The notes under the pieces were generated by a model. The model had not been told where the DNA came from. It was given only the letters and a program-made list of their open reading frames with translations, and searched no databases. From Candidatus Bathyarchaeota archaeon (lineage in GTDB: Archaea > Thermoproteota > Bathyarchaeia > Bathyarchaeales > Bathycorpusculaceae), in the NCBI GenBank assembly GCA_963815095.1, contig CAWFFH010000003.1, positions 64,001-128,000 on the forward strand: DNA of 64,000 nucleotides, in the 5' to 3' direction. The position numbers and the translations under genes were made by a program. Within the stretch, counting starts at the first letter, position 1. The number at the start of each line of letters is the position of its first letter. Shown one piece after another: positions 10,566-19,016 of the stretch.

Positions 10566-12074
10566 TTACATTCCTGATTTTAGTCGTCGATAGGTTGTGT
10601 AATCCACATATTCTATGAAGGGATTTTCGGCTTGGAATTTTACAGTGATTTTCTGTCGTTTCCGTTTGTCAAGAAGCTGGCTTGTTGTTCTGAGCAGATA
10701 TGAATCGCTGCCTGCGCCTGAGCCGTAACTTGTAACCAGAATGCGTTCATCAGGTTTAGCAACGTCGAGAACTGCAGCTAAACCTACAAGCGAGGCACCT
10801 GAGTAAGTATTGCCGAACTTTGTTATTTGAAGGGCAGGCAAATATTGCTCATCTTTGAATCCGAGTTCTTTTGCAACTCTCACTGGGAAAGTGGGGTTAG
10901 GCTGATGAGGAACGAAATAGTTTAAATCAGCGGCTTTAACGTTGAAGCGTTCCATCAGTTTAGTGGCAGCTTTGCGAACATGTTTATGGTATGCTGGATC
11001 ACCTGTGAATCTTCCGCCATGCATGGGGTATGGTTCACCGTCTCGACGCCAAAAGTCAGGAGTATCAGAGGTGCAGGAGTACCACCCTTCAACTTCAGCG
11101 ATTACATCCTGTTTTCCATAGATGAATGCTGCGGCGCCGTATCCTACAAAAGAATCTAATTCACCACCAGGGCATCCTCGGGGTGCGGCTTGAGAATTAT
11201 CTGCACCAATAACCATTGCATAGTTTATGCCTGACTGGGGGTAACTAACAAGTGCAGATGCATCTTTGAACATACTTGTGGCTGCTTTACAAGCAAACTC
11301 TGTATCCACTGCATCAACGCTTTGAACGTCACCATCTTCTTCACCTAACTGTAGAACCTGAGCTACTTTTGACGCGATTGGTTTAACGGCATAAGGGTTA
11401 GATTCTGAGCCAACGTAAACTTTTCCAACCCACGCACTATCAATTCCTGAATGGATTAGGGCAAGTTTCCCGGCTTCAACCGCCGCTGTCACAGAATCTT
11501 CATCTATGAAAGGAACGGCACGTTCTAATCCACCGTCTTTTATACGGAAACGTGAGGAGTAAGCGCCATAACCCACAATCCCAGGCAACTCATAGTCTTT
11601 TCTTGGTTGAATCACCTTGTATTCCTGATGTGGATAATACTCGTCCGCTAAGGTAAAAGCTAGAGAGATCGTGGGAACAACTTCGCTCTTTCCTACTGAA
11701 TAACGTCTGCGGAACCGGGGAATTACTTCTCGTCCCTCAAGGCTCGCAAAATCCACATCGTCACCATCACAAATCAGTTGGTCTGTTAGCCGTGCAGGCA
11801 CTCGGATTTTGCCGTCATGGAAAGAGACAATGCCGTAAACATAACTGGATAGTTTCATGAATTTGTTTGTGGGCTCGTTAACGTAAGTGCAGAGTTCCAA
11901 TTTGCCCTTGTCATAGAACAAATCGATGCTATCCATTTTACCGAAGCTTTTTCTGCCGCAGTTGCTGCAGTAGTCGCGCACTTCAAAGTATTCTTTGCCG
12001 CAACTTTGACAACGACATGCCTTTAGACGGTCACCTAAGTAAGAAACACGTCGCTCTATTGGTTCACTACTCAT
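10566..12074 (-). CDS. DUF35 (Zn ribbon + OB fold)-hydroxymethylglutaryl-CoA synthase fusion
   Basis: N-terminal CQSCG...CSNCG plus OB fold; HMGS motifs GSESNPYAVKP, EFACKAA, DFWRR, HQPN, GNTYSG, YGSGAGSD. Confidence 0.92.
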   Translation of the reverse strand: MSSEPIERRVSYLGDRLKACRCQSCGKEYFEVRDYCSNCGRKSFGKMDSIDLFYDKGKLELCTYVNEPTNKFMKLSSYVYGIVSFHDGKIRVPARLTDQLICDGDDVDFASLEGREVIPRFRRRYSVGKSEVVPTISLAFTLADEYYPHQEYKVIQPRKDYELPGIVGYGAYSSRFRIKDGGLERAVPFIDEDSVTAAVEAGKLALIHSGIDSAWVGKVYVGSESNPYAVKPIASKVAQVLQLGEEDGDVQSVDAVDTEFACKAATSMFKDASALVSYPQSGINYAMVIGADNSQAAPRGCPGGELDSFVGYGAAAFIYGKQDVIAEVEGWYSCTSDTPDFWRRDGEPYPMHGGRFTGDPAYHKHVRKAATKLMERFNVKAADLNYFVPHQPNPTFPVRVAKELGFKDEQYLPALQITKFGNTYSGASLVGLAAVLDVAKPDERILVTSYGSGAGSDSYLLRTTSQLLDKRKRQKITVKFQAENPFIEYVDYTTYRRLKSGM

Positions 12075-13263
12075 TTTTCTGCACTCCTAAAATGGATACG
12101 TAAGCTTTTGTTCCAAAACCCTCAAACTCCAATACACCGCCATTATGAGGTAAACTATTACCAACGTGAACTTGTCTTTCACCTGCTTCACCACGAAGTT
12201 GGCGGAAAATCTCATAAATCTGTGCTCCTCCAGTTGCACCCAACGGGTTACCATCTGCTTTTAAGCCGCCATCTGTGTTTACATAAAGCGGTTTTCCACT
12301 TATGTCATAACAGTTTTGGCACCCATGAATACTTTTCCAAGCAGTACCAGGTTGGCAGTAGCCCAAGTCTTCAAGAGAAACCATCTCCATCATAGTAGAT
12401 TGATCATAAACTTCAAGAATTTGCAACTCCGAAGGTTTAACCTTAGAGGTTTGGACAGCGTTTTTCATTGCAAGCTCAGCAGCAACAAAATGGGATAAGT
12501 CTTCTCGTTTTGGATAGTTCAAGTAGTCAGTTGCTGAACCGATGGCTAAAACCGAGACGGGGTGTTTAGTCTTTTTTTTGGCGACTGAATCGCTTGTTAG
12601 AATTAAAGCTGAGGCTCCATCCGAGATTGGGGCAAAATCATAGAGTCCCAAGGGTTTATGGGCGGTTTTTCTTGCGTTTAGAACTTGGTCGATGGTGATT
12701 TTTCTTTGAAATTGCGCATATTTGTTTTTAGTTGCGTTCGCATGGTTCTTAACAGTAATCTCTGCCAAAGCCATGTTTAACTTGTCGAGGTTTGCGCCCG
12801 CAATATGGTGTTTCTTTATGTAAGCTCGAAGCATAAGTTCATGGTTCGATTCAGGTGTGCCACCTGCATAATAACTCCATGGATCATCAAGTAACATGAG
12901 GTCGTCGCGAATTTTGTCCCAGCGATCTGTCATCTTCTCTATACCACCTACTAGAACCGTGTTGTAGGCTCCAGCCTGAATCGCGTGGCAAGCGGTTAAT
13001 AGGGCGGCGCTGAAGGAGCGGGTAACTTCCATGGGAACGTGAAGTTCAGTTAATTCGGAGAGAAAACCCTCTTCAAGCCCTAGCTTGTTGGTGATAGGAA
13101 GAAAACAATCTGACAGGTAACAAGCTTCTAGGTCTTTGCGTTCGATGTTACATTCGTTTGAAGCGGCAAGCCAAGATTCCTCAATTAGTTTTTCTGGTTC
13201 TTTGCCGTAGTGTTCTCCAAACTTAGTGCGGCCAACAGCAACGATGGCTGGGCAGTTTTGCAT
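12067..13263 (-). CDS. Thiolase-fold protein lacking the catalytic Cys and His
   Basis: VGRTKFG, GIEKM, KNHANA, PISDGASA, NTDGGLKA motifs are present; no CASG motif; GHP is replaced by GNP; start likely ATG at 13263. Confidence 0.88.
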   Translation of the reverse strand: MQNCPAIVAVGRTKFGEHYGKEPEKLIEESWLAASNECNIERKDLEACYLSDCFLPITNKLGLEEGFLSELTELHVPMEVTRSFSAALLTACHAIQAGAYNTVLVGGIEKMTDRWDKIRDDLMLLDDPWSYYAGGTPESNHELMLRAYIKKHHIAGANLDKLNMALAEITVKNHANATKNKYAQFQRKITIDQVLNARKTAHKPLGLYDFAPISDGASALILTSDSVAKKKTKHPVSVLAIGSATDYLNYPKREDLSHFVAAELAMKNAVQTSKVKPSELQILEVYDQSTMMEMVSLEDLGYCQPGTAWKSIHGCQNCYDISGKPLYVNTDGGLKADGNPLGATGGAQIYEIFRQLRGEAGERQVHVGNSLPHNGGVLEFEGFGTKAYVSILGVQKNE

Positions 13264-13391
13264 TACATTTTCCCCTTTTTGGATAGCATACAAGGTTTTC
13301 CAAAACGACTATTAAGGGTTTGCCATATCCCCACGAAAAATTCGAATAACAAGGTCAAAAGCAAACCATAAAAAAATAACTTAACTCCTCT

Positions 13392-14789
13392 CTATGGGAC
13401 TCCATTAGTTATCTCATTTTTAGTTAACTGAAACCTTGTTGTTTCTACCAGATTCTGAAGGTTTTGACTCAACTCCACTGGATATATTGGAGCATCTGTC
13501 AATGCCTTAAATTTGTCTGGAAGTTTTGATAGATTTTCTGAAGCTGTAGAACGAATTTGCTCAAGCGACGGTAAACTGTAGGACAATTTGCCCTTTTCCA
13601 TGACTTTAACAAGCAAACCTTCACCCGCAACATTCTCATCAGCCAAGGCAATAACATCTTTTCTGAAACAGCCTTCTTCATCTTTGAAACGGTAAACTTG
13701 CTTTCGCCCGGGAAGAGTGATTTTGTCCTTGCTTAGCTTCATAATTGGCGAGAAATTACCGTCAGCTGTCATGGTTTCGCAGAGTTTGTAGATGACATCA
13801 AGGTATGGGCGATCCGCACAAGTACCCATTTTCGTCCCGACGCCAAACGCGTCAATCTTGGTGTCTTCTTTTAGGAGTTGTGTAATTTTGAATTCTTCCA
13901 AGTCGCCGCTAACAAAAATTTTAACGTTCCTCAAACCATTGTCATCCAAGATTTTTCTAACTTTTTTGCTTGTCTCTGCTAGGTCTCCACTGTCCAATCT
14001 GACACCGCCAAGACTGTAACCTTTTGCTTCGAGTTCCTTGGCGACGATGATCGCTTTTTCTGCGCCCGCCATGTCATCGTAGGTATCTATGAGGAGGGTA
14101 GATTTGTTTGGGAAAGTTTTGGTAAACGCGCGGAACGCGTCGATTTCTTTAGGGTAGGACATGATGAACGAGTGCGCCATGGTGCCGAAGACGGGGATGT
14201 CGTAAGCCATGCCTGCTAAAACGTTGCTGGTTCCTTGGCATCCCGCAATGTAGCTTGATCGCGCCACCTTCATACCCGCATCAATTCCAGGTTCTCGCCT
14301 TAAGCCAAATTCAATCACTGATTTGCCGTTTGCTGCATGAACTACACGTGAAGCTTTAGTTGCTATCATAGTTTGCAGGTTGACGGTGTTTAACAAAAAA
14401 GTCTCGATGAGCTGTGCCTCGATTATGGGCGCGGTTACTCGAATTAAGGGTTCGTTGGGAAACGCTACAGTTCCCTCGGGAACAGCCCAAACCTCACCAG
14501 TGAACTTAAACTTGGAGAGATAATTGAGGAAGCCCTTGCGAAAACCCTGCTTTTTTAGATACGCCAAATGTTCCTCAGTAAACTTTGTGCTCTGCAGATA
14601 CTGCAACGCCTCTTCTAAGCCTGCGAAGAGGAAATAGCTGCGGTTTTCGGGCAATCGTCGGATGAAGAGGTCGAATGTTGCAGGCTCAAAGTTTTTGTTG
14701 TCAAAGTAACTTGCGCACATGGTCAATTCGTAGTAATCGGTAAATAAACTGATGTTTTCAGCAGATAAATAGCCGAGAAAACTTTTCAT
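13392..14789 (-). CDS. pncB: Nicotinate phosphoribosyltransferase
   Basis: TDYYELTM, EFGLRR, GTMAHS, LIDTYD, VRLDSGD. Confidence 0.96.
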   Translation of the reverse strand: MKSFLGYLSAENISLFTDYYELTMCASYFDNKNFEPATFDLFIRRLPENRSYFLFAGLEEALQYLQSTKFTEEHLAYLKKQGFRKGFLNYLSKFKFTGEVWAVPEGTVAFPNEPLIRVTAPIIEAQLIETFLLNTVNLQTMIATKASRVVHAANGKSVIEFGLRREPGIDAGMKVARSSYIAGCQGTSNVLAGMAYDIPVFGTMAHSFIMSYPKEIDAFRAFTKTFPNKSTLLIDTYDDMAGAEKAIIVAKELEAKGYSLGGVRLDSGDLAETSKKVRKILDDNGLRNVKIFVSGDLEEFKITQLLKEDTKIDAFGVGTKMGTCADRPYLDVIYKLCETMTADGNFSPIMKLSKDKITLPGRKQVYRFKDEEGCFRKDVIALADENVAGEGLLVKVMEKGKLSYSLPSLEQIRSTASENLSKLPDKFKALTDAPIYPVELSQNLQNLVETTRFQLTKNEITNGVP

Positions 14790-14958: not shown

Positions 14959-16005
14959 ATGCCAGAAGACTCCGAAGCTCAACCTCAAGAAGAACATGAA
15001 GAATCTATACTTGAAGCAAACAAGAAAAAATATGAGTTCATAGAAGACCTGCCAGGAGTTGGCCCAGCAACAGCGGCAAAACTCAAAGAACTCGGCTACC
15101 ACACCGTAGAATCCTTAGCTATGGCAACCTACCGTGAACTCGAACCAGTCGGAGTAAGCGAGAAAAAAGCCTTCCAAGTCATCGAAGCCGCACGCTCATC
15201 CATCGGCATCTCATTTATTCGAGCAGACGAACTCTTCAAAATGCGCCAAACTGTTCTGCGGGTAACTACAGGCAGCAAAGCGTTAGATAAAATCGTCGAT
15301 GGCGGCCTAGAAACCCAAACCATCACAGAATTTTACGGTGAATACGGCAGCGGCAAAAGCCAAATGTGCCACCAACTATGCATCAACGTACAGCTACCCC
15401 CAGAAAAAGGTGGACTCGATGGTGCAGCTTTGTACATTGACACCGAGAACACTTTCAGGTTGGAACGCATTGTGCAGATGGCAAAGGGTGCGGGATTAGA
15501 CCCAGCCGAAGCCGTTAAAAAAATCATTTATGCTGAAGCCTACACTTCAGACCACCAGATGTTCCTACTTGAGAACGCTGATGAAATAATCAAGGCAAAC
15601 AACATCAAACTGATAATAGTTGATTCATTAACTGCTCACTTCCGAAGCGAATATATAGGAAGAGAAATGCTCGCGTCAAGACAACAAAAGCTCAACAAAC
15701 ACATGCACAAACTCATCGCCTTAGCTCGAGCATTTAACGCAGTAGCAGTTGTAACCAACCAAGTCATGGCTAAACCAGACCAATTCTTCGGCGATGCAAT
15801 CCACCCAATAGGAGGAAACATCGTCGGCCACACAAGCGCCACACGAATCTATCTAAGACGCGCTTCGCATGGACCAATCCGCATCGCAAGATTAGTTTCA
15901 AGCCCATATTTGCCTGAAGGTGAGGAAATCCTTAAAGTAACCGAGAACGGAATAGAAGATGTCTCTGAAGAAGAGAAAGCAACTAAACCATCTCGTGGAC
16001 GCTAA
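14959..16005 (+). CDS. radA: DNA repair and recombination protein RadA
   Basis: N-terminal HhH (LPGVGPATA), GEYGSGKSQ, YIDTENTF, VDSL, FRSEYIGR. Confidence 0.98.
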   Translation: MPEDSEAQPQEEHEESILEANKKKYEFIEDLPGVGPATAAKLKELGYHTVESLAMATYRELEPVGVSEKKAFQVIEAARSSIGISFIRADELFKMRQTVLRVTTGSKALDKIVDGGLETQTITEFYGEYGSGKSQMCHQLCINVQLPPEKGGLDGAALYIDTENTFRLERIVQMAKGAGLDPAEAVKKIIYAEAYTSDHQMFLLENADEIIKANNIKLIIVDSLTAHFRSEYIGREMLASRQQKLNKHMHKLIALARAFNAVAVVTNQVMAKPDQFFGDAIHPIGGNIVGHTSATRIYLRRASHGPIRIARLVSSPYLPEGEEILKVTENGIEDVSEEEKATKPSRGR

Positions 16006-16007
16006 AT

Positions 16008-16478
16008 ATGCCGATTTCACAAGCCTTAGTTACCAGGTACTTTCAGCTCATAGTTAGCAGGCAATTCACAGAAGCTGAACGTGAGTTGGAACGAGTTAAA
16101 CAAAAAATGCAGAAAACCGAATGGAACAGGGGATACTTCCGAGCACTCTACGGCATGTATCTTTCACGCAAAAACAGTGCCACAGACGACTACGCTTTTT
16201 TTTCAAAAGTTGATTTAACTGACAAAGTAAATTTGCATGCTTACCGAAAAGAATTCCTTGAGCACATGGGCAACGGTTTGCATGGAGACTTTGACCGTGG
16301 ATATTTTTCCGCATGGGCAGATTGCATGCGTATAATTGCGCGCATGGATATTCAAAATCAGAACGGTAACAGCAAATCTGCAGGCGAAGGAGAAAAAATC
16401 GAAACCTTAAGAAGCGATAAAAGTCAGGCAACTATAGCGAATTTTCTGAAGAAAACAGAAGACAAACAAGAAGAGTAA
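16008..16478 (+). CDS. Hypothetical helical protein directly downstream of radA
   Basis: 2-nt gap after the radA stop; internal repeat WNRGYF / FDRGYF. Confidence 0.7.
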   Translation: MPISQALVTRYFQLIVSRQFTEAERELERVKQKMQKTEWNRGYFRALYGMYLSRKNSATDDYAFFSKVDLTDKVNLHAYRKEFLEHMGNGLHGDFDRGYFSAWADCMRIIARMDIQNQNGNSKSAGEGEKIETLRSDKSQATIANFLKKTEDKQEE

Positions 16479-16790: not shown

Positions 16791-16958
16791 GTAAATCGAA
16801 TCCTTGATTTTGTATATTGTTCTTACTTAAAAAAGATGCCTAAGTATTAATCGTTTCTGATACCCAAAAGCTCGATTCCAGCAATTTGACGAGTTTTGGT
16901 GAAAACGGTTAATTTATAGTCAATGACTATAGATTCCATTACAATAGCGGTGCCTACC

Positions 16959-19016
16959 TTGCGCAAAAAAGACTTCTCAAGCTTTGACATTGCCGCAGCA
17001 ATCAAAGAACTAAAAATCACTTTAGCCGATTCCAGAGTGAACAACATCTATCAACTTGACGAGAAAACCGTAATCTTCAAACTCCACAAAACAGACCAAC
17101 CGCCTATTCGATTAGTGATGGAGGCAGGCAGAAGACTACATGTGACTAGTTACGCAGAAGAAAACCCCGCTGAACCCCCAGCATTCTGTATGGCATTGAG
17201 AAAATACTTGCGTAACTCATGGGTAACTGGAATTGACCAATATGAGTTTGAAAGAATCGTAACAGTTACTTTTAGGACCAAAACAGGTTTGTTAAAATTG
17301 GTTGTGGAGCTTTTCGGCGAAGGCAACTTGATACTAACAAATGAACAAAACGTGATTATTCATGCGTTAGCTTTTAAAAAAATGCGTGACCGCGACATCC
17401 TGCACAACATAGTCCTTCAGCTTCCCCCTTCAAGCGGCAAAAACCCCTTCAAAGTAACCCAAAGTGAGCTGGAAGAAGCTCTCAAAAACGCAGGGGAAAC
17501 TGAAGTTGTAAGGTCTATCGCGCGTTTCTTGGGGGTTGGTGGAGTTTATGCAGAAGAAATTCTGCTGCGAGCTAATGTGGATAAAACTAAGCATTGTAAT
17601 ACCGTAACAAGCGAGGAGGTTAAGGGGATTTTTACTGCCCTACAAACTTTACTGGCCGCTGTTTCAGGAGGCAACTTGGAGGCTTGCATAGTTCTGGGTG
17701 ATGACGGAGACTATCTGGATGTTGTGCCTATCAAGCTGAAACGTTATGAAAGCTGCAAACTTCAGGTTTACAACTCATTTAATCAGGCTTTAGACGAATT
17801 TTACCTGAGAGTAATCACCGCAGAGAAAGCGTTTGCAAGCGTTGAAGTTGACAAGTTAAAAAAAGAAGCCGAACGACTCAGACGAATGGTTGCGGAACAA
17901 GAAAAATCCATTCATGAAGATGAAGCCAAATCTGAACGAGACAAACTCGTCGGCGACACCATCTACGCTCATTTTAACGAGCTTCAAACATTCCAAGAGC
18001 AACTGATAAAAGCAAACCAACAAGGACACGACTGGGACATAATCATCACAACGGTCATGGCTGCAAAGAAAACAGGCAAAGTGCCAGCGGCTTATGTTGA
18101 AGGTTTTGATGGCAAAAACCTCGCACTTAACCTCGGCGTAGATAATTTCCATTTCAGTTTCAACTTGCGAGATTCGCTCTTTGATAACGCCAACAGGTAC
18201 TATGAACATGGTAAACACGCTAAAGAAAAAGCTCAAGGCGCTCTCTTTGCTCTTCAGGATTCTAAGAGGAAACTAGCTAAAATCGAGCGCGAGCTGGCTG
18301 AAGCGGAAACGCTCAAGAGCCTAAAACCAGCCGAAATGATAGAAGCACTCTCCAAACGTAAAGTAGAAATGGAAAACAAGGAGTGGTACGAAAAATTCCG
18401 CTGGTATATTTCCTCAGATGGCTTCTTAGTGGTTGCAGGTAAAGACACTGTCAGCAATGAAGTGCTTATAAAAAAATACACTATACAAGAGGATGTAGTT
18501 TTTCACGCAGAAATCACTGGGTCACCGTTTGTAGTTATCAAATCGGAAGGTAGACCAATTAGTGAACAAGCCTTGCGGGAAGCCGGCGAGTTTGCAGCTT
18601 CTTTTTCGCGGGCATGGCGGGAAAACCTTGGAACAGCAGACGTTTATTGGGTAAAAGTTGACCAGCTAACTAAAAGTGGTCCGTCTGGAGAATCAGTTCC
18701 TCATGGAGCGTTTTTTGTTGTGGGTAAACGCAACTGGTTTAGGAACACACCATTAAAAGTGGCAATCGGGATAATCGTCGGTGAAGAAACAACCTTTGTT
18801 GGCGGTCCAGTCGACGCAGTGAAGGCGAAAACCAAAACTTACCTCGTTATCTTGCCTGGAGATTTAGCCGGCAAAGAACTACTCAAGCAAATTCTCAAAT
18901 CTCTCATGCTAAAGTTGCCCAAGGAACAACGCGAAAAAGCAGGAAAAACATCGATTGAACAAGTCCGAGAGTTTGTTCCCTACACGAAAGGCACAATAAA
19001 CCAAAAAGCAACCTAA
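16959..19016 (+). CDS. rqcH: Ribosome quality control factor RqcH/aRqc2 (NEMF, NFACT family)
   Basis: FCMALRKYL, FERIV, ELFGEGN, WYEKFRW, AGKD...NE; start likely TTG at 16959 after GGTG. Confidence 0.93.
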   Translation: MRKKDFSSFDIAAAIKELKITLADSRVNNIYQLDEKTVIFKLHKTDQPPIRLVMEAGRRLHVTSYAEENPAEPPAFCMALRKYLRNSWVTGIDQYEFERIVTVTFRTKTGLLKLVVELFGEGNLILTNEQNVIIHALAFKKMRDRDILHNIVLQLPPSSGKNPFKVTQSELEEALKNAGETEVVRSIARFLGVGGVYAEEILLRANVDKTKHCNTVTSEEVKGIFTALQTLLAAVSGGNLEACIVLGDDGDYLDVVPIKLKRYESCKLQVYNSFNQALDEFYLRVITAEKAFASVEVDKLKKEAERLRRMVAEQEKSIHEDEAKSERDKLVGDTIYAHFNELQTFQEQLIKANQQGHDWDIIITTVMAAKKTGKVPAAYVEGFDGKNLALNLGVDNFHFSFNLRDSLFDNANRYYEHGKHAKEKAQGALFALQDSKRKLAKIERELAEAETLKSLKPAEMIEALSKRKVEMENKEWYEKFRWYISSDGFLVVAGKDTVSNEVLIKKYTIQEDVVFHAEITGSPFVVIKSEGRPISEQALREAGEFAASFSRAWRENLGTADVYWVKVDQLTKSGPSGESVPHGAFFVVGKRNWFRNTPLKVAIGIIVGEETTFVGGPVDAVKAKTKTYLVILPGDLAGKELLKQILKSLMLKLPKEQREKAGKTSIEQVREFVPYTKGTINQKAT

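Follow-up and report, generated by a model that had tools for sequence, protein, structure and literature searches.

Why would an archaeon keep, beside the only HMG-CoA synthase (HMGS) found in its genome, a thiolase that has lost its catalytic residues? The question is raised by a 64,000-nucleotide stretch of DNA from a Candidatus Bathyarchaeota archaeon (GenBank assembly GCA_963815095.1, contig CAWFFH010000003.1, positions 64,001 to 128,000 of the forward strand), here called the window. A thiolase-fold gene at 12067..13263 on the minus strand, referred to below as the pseudo-thiolase or dead thiolase, lies directly upstream of a gene for a DUF35-HMGS fusion protein. Isoprenoid lipids are essential to all archaea, and the thiolase/HMGS/DUF35 complex is the textbook case of channelling used by archaea to draw the uphill thiolase reaction forward. 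The Bathyarchaeia are abundant in sediment and soil. We find that the thiolase half of the complex is dead but retained across a whole order of this class. The pseudo-thiolase is probably a non-catalytic but obligate structural subunit of the DUF35-HMGS complex, with acetoacetyl-CoA being supplied in trans.

A thiolase fold without catalytic residues

The pseudo-thiolase comprises 398 amino acids from an ATG start; an alternative TTG start at 13293 would make it 10 amino acids longer. Its Pfam matches (Thiolase_C_1, 1.2e-27; Thiolase_N, 6.2e-10), an AlphaFold2 model (pLDDT 93, pTM 0.94) and Foldseek all identify the five-layer thiolase fold, more specifically that of the SCP2/archaeal type. 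The closest solved structure is 6esq_A (E 1.4e-47), from the thiolase/HMGS/DUF35 complex of Methanothermococcus thermolithotrophicus, which is also the top Foldseek match of the model (TM 0.90/0.92, root-mean-square deviation 2.0 Å, 31% identity). All NCBIfam cut-offs lie above the scores of the protein (best NF004720, 274.8 against 420 bits; AcCoTHIOL_METTL, 218.5 against 600). Public sources label its homologues acetyl-CoA C-acetyltransferase.

The initial annotation had reported four degenerate motifs in an otherwise intact open reading frame overlapping that of DUF35-HMGS, and every part of this description was borne out, including the overlap, which spans 8 nucleotides. The remnant of the nucleophile loop reads MEVTRSFSA (13006..13032), EVYDQS replaces EVHDCF (12397..12414; His to Tyr, Cys to Gln and Phe to Ser), GNP replaces GHP (12244..12252), and LEFEGFG replaces the HNxGG loop (12112..12132), all on the minus strand. 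Aligned by MAFFT with active relatives, the protein shows a four-residue deletion that removes the Cys of the CxS loop (TEAACASSG to TR----SFS). Alignment to the solved archaeal thiolases 6esq_A and 7yvy_A likewise sets a gap/TRSF against the CASG loop, EVYDQS against EVHDCF and GNP against GH(A/P). The protein thus lacks the nucleophilic Cys, the HDxF motif with its essential His and its acid/base Cys, and the His of GHx that mark an active thiolase, in addition to falling below the NCBIfam cut-off. According to PMC12960953, the substitutions H284A in an archaeal thiolase and H294Y in PfACAT, a Pseudomonas homologue, abolish or nearly abolish activity. The pseudo-thiolase has the same His-to-Tyr change as PfACAT H294Y, besides its other losses. 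Members lacking the Cys are common among the full-length cluster representatives nearest to the query (45 of 128); loss of all four catalytic positions is rare (2 of 128), and one of these two representatives is the pseudo-thiolase's own family.

The altered motifs are themselves strongly conserved. In a set made up of the query and its best 120 homologues (79-100% identity, two of them named Bathyarchaeia or Bathyarchaeota by source), T81, R82, S83, S289, N339, E379 and E381 are invariant in all 121 sequences and Q288 in 120; E379 and E381 belong to the LEFEGFG segment. The dead motifs are found in all 30 orthologues from sampled genomes: each has lost the Cys loop and carries substitutes for HDCF, GHP and HNxGG. 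Across these orthologues 97 of the 398 positions are invariant, none of them a Cys, and the four catalytic motif regions hold no invariant Cys or His. Furthermore, the dead clade has become fixed for a different residue at each of twelve positions that active thiolases conserve, namely R82, L125, S130, P137, E138, N140, A211, Q288, S289, N339, E379 and E381. Judged from these sequences, the absence of the catalytic residues is neither chance nor sequencing error.

Purifying selection and descent from an active partner

Orthologues of the pseudo-thiolase (at least 57% identity) occur in 32 of the 151 genomes sampled from the class and in 53 of the 61 sampled from the order. The ratio of nonsynonymous to synonymous substitution (dN/dS, NG86) was computed for 15 ortholog pairs, with dS unsaturated in 9. 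Over these nine pairs it ranges from 0.033 to 0.097, compared with 0.030-0.076 for the neighbouring HMGS. The conservation and dN/dS comparison suggested by the initial annotation therefore gives ratios below 0.1 and shows the dead motifs in each of the 30 orthologues; the nucleophile position lacks a Cys, and close relatives do not retain the Cys and His. The pseudo-thiolase is a maintained gene under purifying selection and not a decaying one.

To place the gene, we used a maximum-likelihood tree of 67 rows (LG+C20+F+G4, with UFBoot and SH-aLRT supports). In it, the thiolases adjoining DUF35-HMGS fusions all fall into a single clade (UFBoot 100 / SH-aLRT 99), so that the pseudo-thiolase is orthologous to HMGS-partnering thiolases as well as adjacent to HMGS and DUF35. 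Within this clade, three fusion partners (from genomes G006, G060 and G108) have the full CAS/HDCF/GHP/HNxGG motifs, and the dead sequences form a group of their own with 100/100 support on a long stem (0.74). Twenty clade-specific residues are common to dead and active fusion partners. Since dead and active partners share a single clade, the dead subunit is a vertical descendant of the original HMGS-partner thiolase. An unfused order of HMGS, active thiolase and DUF35 is found in G159.

The same clade contains a fusion partner in G004 (L045:5897-7081) in which the Cys loop is deleted and the second motif reads HDAT, with both His and GHP kept. Its position in the tree, among the active partners, raises the possibility of a second, independent inactivation. 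Sequence P0124 (SASG / EIHDSY / DGNP) falls in the same clade as this partner.

Linkage to the DUF35-HMGS fusion

The 8-nucleotide overlap ATGAGTAG (12067..12074, minus strand) contains the stop codon of the pseudo-thiolase (TAG) and the start codon of the fusion (ATG), an arrangement that suggests translational coupling of the two genes. The fusion protein has 502 amino acids. Residues 1-150 (11625..12074, minus strand) form a DUF35 domain (Pfam zf-ChsH2, 9.6e-06) with a CxxC...CxxC zinc ribbon at 11955-12011 (minus strand). Residues 151-502 (10566..11624, minus strand) form an archaeal HMG-CoA synthase domain, which scores 367.3 bits with NF003274 against a cut-off of 244. In an alignment to 6esq_I (E 1.2e-74) this domain keeps the E-C-H-N tetrad, at GSESNPY (11391-11411), EFACKAA (11280-11300), VPHQPN (10896-10913) and FGNTYSG (10797-10817). 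The fusion is the only HMGS found in the genome (2.69 Mb, 98% complete). The dead thiolase lies directly upstream of the fusion gene in 29 of the 30 ortholog loci, and the thirtieth stops at a contig end.

The published work on such complexes offers a reason for this linkage. As cited there from Vogeli 2018, PMC12960953 describes archaeal HMGS as inactive and the thiolase as insoluble when each is expressed alone, and places a fused CoA site at the interface between HMGS and the thiolase (ACAT). According to PMC11522927, the archaeal complex contains two dimers each of HMGS and thiolase together with four DUF35 subunits, and archaeal HMGS is 50-100 residues shorter than its bacterial and eukaryotic counterparts. 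By analogy with the Methanothermococcus complex, on which this argument draws, the reason for retaining the dead thiolase would be that the short HMGS of archaea depends on a partner with the thiolase fold, both for its activity and to complete the CoA site at the interface. The dead thiolase probably remains docked to DUF35, which has become a domain of the HMGS protein, and would itself make no acetoacetyl-CoA. A separate active thiolase, in this genome probably the one described below, would make it, and since acetoacetyl-CoA would then reach HMGS as a free metabolite, the original channelling would have been lost.

The genomes lacking the pair are consistent with a need for the partner. 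G014, G044 and G050, three genomes of one family that are 95-98% complete, yielded no dead thiolase and no archaeal HMGS, indicating that the dead thiolase disappears when archaeal HMGS disappears. All three retain the separate thiolase with its DUF35 gene. In addition, G044 (L070:913-2280), G014 (L071) and G050 (L072) encode an HMGS of the 455-amino-acid class and of bacterial/eukaryote type (PF01154 + PF08540). The argument leaves aside G151 (98% complete), in which no dead thiolase, archaeal HMGS or PF08540 HMGS was found and which has four thiolase matches.

A separate and replaceable active thiolase

The initial annotation had reasoned that acetoacetyl-CoA would need another source, and such a source is present. 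Only one other thiolase-family gene was found in the genome, in a thiolase+DUF35 pair on contig C8 (G000:C8:1690-3293). Its motifs are intact (CASS, EVHDCF, GHP and HNVGG), it passes its NCBIfam cut-off (510.9 bits), and a stand-alone DUF35 gene follows it. The DUF35 domain of the window's fusion shares 30% identity with this stand-alone protein. In the tree, C8-type thiolases fall outside the fusion-partner clade. C8-type orthologues (at least 65% identity) occur in 45 of the 61 order genomes, and the motifs are intact in G038, G032, G008, G106, G174, G014, G044 and G050. Overall, a candidate active thiolase is present in 50 of the 53 order genomes that have the dead one.

Two further arrangements were seen near C8-type pairs. 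Two genes downstream of the C8 pair lies an open reading frame of 1891 amino acids (G000:C8:4250-9925; L059), conserved in G038 (1895 amino acids). In G008, contig C7 (L056:4812-9416) carries two tandem Cys-less thiolase-like genes together with DUF35, with the motifs GGGTG/EPYDPF/GNP and SGDG/EVNDLF/GYG, back to back with a canonical thiolase+DUF35 pair. This tandem pair may encode a heteromeric thiolase-like enzyme.

With an archaeal query, the dead type is the only one to appear in six of the 53 genomes that carry it: G114, G020, G161, G026, G168 and G082. G168 is just 59% complete. G026 was considered as a genome without an active thiolase and rejected: the position syntenic with the thiolase of its congener coincides with the break between contigs C83 and C92, which makes the missing thiolase attributable to an assembly gap. 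G082 is taken up in the next section.

The remaining three belong to a group of four order genomes, out of 61, that encode a bacterial-type thiolase II and lack a C8-type orthologue; the four are not independent, as G020 and G177 belong to one genus. The genes are L041:502-1800 (G114:C32:9097-10392), G020:C3:80527-81810, G177:C3:43314-44600 and G161:C39:4717-5694. The protein from G114 matches PF00108 with 308 bits and PF02803 with 166 bits, and has the Cys, GHP and CxG. The presence of this bacterial-type thiolase in place of the C8-type looks like non-orthologous displacement.

In the case of G020 (100% complete), the event can be followed at the locus itself. In the congener G106, the thiolase+DUF35 pair stands between two genes that in G020 lie 5 bp from each other, and tblastn detected no remnant of the pair. 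G020 has thus undergone a clean deletion of the C8-type pair with non-orthologous replacement. This speaks for an active thiolase that functions in trans and has no need to dock on the complex. The same genome encodes a strong 3-hydroxyacyl-CoA dehydrogenase (225 bits), which was not found in the other four genomes searched.

Points against a structural role, and the genus g5

Several observations weigh against a purely structural role. The old active-site loops are not relaxed, since R82, S85, D287, Q288, S289, N339, E379 and E381 are invariant or nearly so, and a plain scaffold would not obviously demand such loop conservation; their function may be to fill the pocket or to give the shared CoA site its form. 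The three genomes that lost both dead thiolase and archaeal HMGS are from one family and may record a single event. The motifs of the 'active' thiolases were inspected in 13 sequences, the others being classed by similarity.

The main exception is a genus, here g5, represented by two species, G082 (95% complete) and G183 (93% complete). Both keep the pair of dead thiolase and DUF35-HMGS, and no active thiolase was found in either. The sole PF00108 match in each is the dead thiolase (40 and 46 bits), which has unchanged dead motifs and lies beside DUF35-HMGS. Purifying selection acts on the pair (dN/dS 0.076 and 0.053 at dS 0.40-0.46), and HMG-CoA reductase is present in both genomes. Searches of G082 and G183 found no CoA-transferase (PF01144), no KAS III-type enzyme besides HMGS and no acetoacetyl-CoA synthetase above cut-off. 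A search for the bacterial-type thiolase, which covered G082 and not G183, was negative as well. Weak ACP_syn_III_C and 3HCDH matches, considered as a hidden condensing enzyme, turned out to be pyridoxal phosphate enzymes and prephenate dehydrogenase. The dead thiolase of g5 shows no genus-specific gain of a catalytic residue: seven residues are private to the genus, none of them in the motif loops. In G082, a conserved neighbour gene lies mid-contig without an adjoining thiolase, in a family whose gene order is too variable to prove a deletion.

For g5, either both assemblies miss a thiolase gene, or the entry into the mevalonate pathway is of an unrecognised kind. There is a slim chance that the remodelled complex itself, or an enzyme of an unrecognised family, starts the pathway in this genus without a thiolase.

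Alternative explanations

The initial annotation had left the choice between an inactive scaffold and a neofunctionalised enzyme. The loss of the catalytic residues under purifying selection agrees with that pair of options, and of the two the scaffold is favoured.

A neofunctionalised enzyme, in which the remodelled pocket performs another reaction feeding HMGS, appears unlikely, although it accounts for some of the data. Such a reaction might be aldol chemistry of the Ltp2/Sal kind through Tyr286, or a thiolase-independent route to acetoacetyl-CoA or HMG-CoA. The Tyr of EVYDQS does stand at the site of the catalytic Tyr of Ltp2, Sal and SLP (YDHF, YDCY and YDCF, as given in PMC12329534). The new residues at the twelve refixed pocket positions are partly charged (for example R82, E379 and E381), and g5, where neither an active thiolase nor a CoA-transferase or KAS III-type enzyme was detected, keeps the pair and HMG-CoA reductase. 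However, Asn or Cys stands in place of Tyr286 in 24 of the 121 sequences (Y 97, N 20, C 4) and in 4 of the 30 orthologues (Y 26, N 3, C 1), with Asn variants occurring in the window genome's own genus. The third position of the motif is Gln and not the His or Cys that an aldolase requires, and the motif regions offer no invariant Cys or His. Moreover, 50 of the 53 genomes have retained an active thiolase or acquired a substitute for it, and the dead thiolase is lost jointly with archaeal HMGS.

Still harder to credit is a heterodimer of the dead thiolase and the active C8-type thiolase, in which one live site would continue to channel acetoacetyl-CoA into HMGS. The solved complex does contain thiolase dimers, according to PMC11522927, and the C8-type orthologue is widespread in the order (45 of 61 genomes). 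Yet G020, G114 and G161 have only a bacterial-type thiolase beside the dead one, the C8-type thiolase has a DUF35 gene of its own, and it persists in G014, G044 and G050, where neither the dead thiolase nor archaeal HMGS was found. The dead and C8-type proteins are, furthermore, merely 33-37% identical.

A decaying pseudogene or an assembly or sequencing artefact, for which nothing speaks apart from the absent catalytic residues, is ruled out by the intact frame, motifs kept almost unchanged in 120 independent homologues, dN/dS below 0.1 and the occurrence of the gene in 53 of 61 order genomes.

Genomic neighbourhood

The upstream neighbours of the pseudo-thiolase are housekeeping genes. They encode nicotinate phosphoribosyltransferase (13392-14789, minus strand), RadA (14959-16005, plus strand; Rad51 family, 285 bits) and an NFACT protein (16923-19016, plus strand; Rqc2-like). 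An open reading frame of 156 amino acids at 16008-16478 has no Pfam match.

Implications

If the pseudo-thiolase is indeed a structural subunit, the complex is needed for HMGS itself, beyond channelling, and the uphill step is run by a free-standing, exchangeable thiolase. Because the public label of the gene is acetyl-CoA C-acetyltransferase, pathway reconstructions count a false thiolase. In g5, where no other thiolase was found, the first step of lipid synthesis becomes a directly testable question.

Comparison with known systems

A literature search that covered few subscription journals turned up no account of an inactive thiolase subunit paired with a working archaeal HMGS. The Methanothermococcus complex provides the best match in sequence and fold for both genes (6esq_A and 6esq_I), and shares the three modules, the adjacent genes and an HMGS with the E-C-H-N tetrad. 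In contrast to that complex, the thiolase of the window is without the Cys nucleophile, the His and Cys of HDxF and the His of GHx, and its HMGS carries DUF35 as an N-terminal fusion. The route described there, with channelling from acetyl-CoA onwards, cannot operate in the same way here.

Ltp2, Sal and SLP (PDB 6OK1, 9MYR and 5AB4; PMC12329534) resemble the pseudo-thiolase in having an SCP2-thiolase fold without the nucleophile Cys and a DUF35 partner. According to that source, a Tyr replaces the His of HDCF in these enzymes too, and Foldseek places them at a TM of about 0.8 to the pseudo-thiolase. The initial annotation had nevertheless held that the pseudo-thiolase does not match Ltp2, which is right in substance. 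Ltp2 combines YDHF with a second Tyr and Sal has YDCY; these enzymes need an invariant Tyr in YD(H/C)(F/Y) and a second Tyr or Cys, whereas the pseudo-thiolase has YDQS, an Asn and a variable Tyr. At the candidate positions of the second catalytic residue (Tyr344 in Ltp2, Cys304 in Sal) stand Asn339 and Gln288, where the equivalence of Tyr344 with the GHx position comes from sequence P0161 (RGYP) and not from a structural alignment. The partner in those systems is a hydratase and not HMGS, and these aldolases are distant in the similarity ranking (6ok1_A, E 1.6e-11). Closer is ST0096 of Sulfolobus tokodaii (PDB 4YZO; E 8.6e-41), an archaeal protein with the thiolase fold that has a Ser instead of a Cys aligned at the nucleophile position. 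Unlike the pseudo-thiolase, ST0096 keeps HD and GHP (ELHDMA and GHPIGA).

The bacterial complexes PhlACB, MucABC and PfACAT/HMGS-DUF35 (PMC12960953; PDB 5M3K and 9VBO) are likewise tripartite assemblies that keep one dead subunit of the thiolase superfamily, and one of them also has an HMGS-DUF35 fusion. These complexes have left primary metabolism, whereas the window carries the only HMGS found in its genome. The archaeal locus is a natural mirror image of these Phl/Muc acyltransferases, in which the HMGS half died: there the HMGS-like tetrad is lost and the ACAT Cys kept, while here the tetrad is kept and the Cys is gone.

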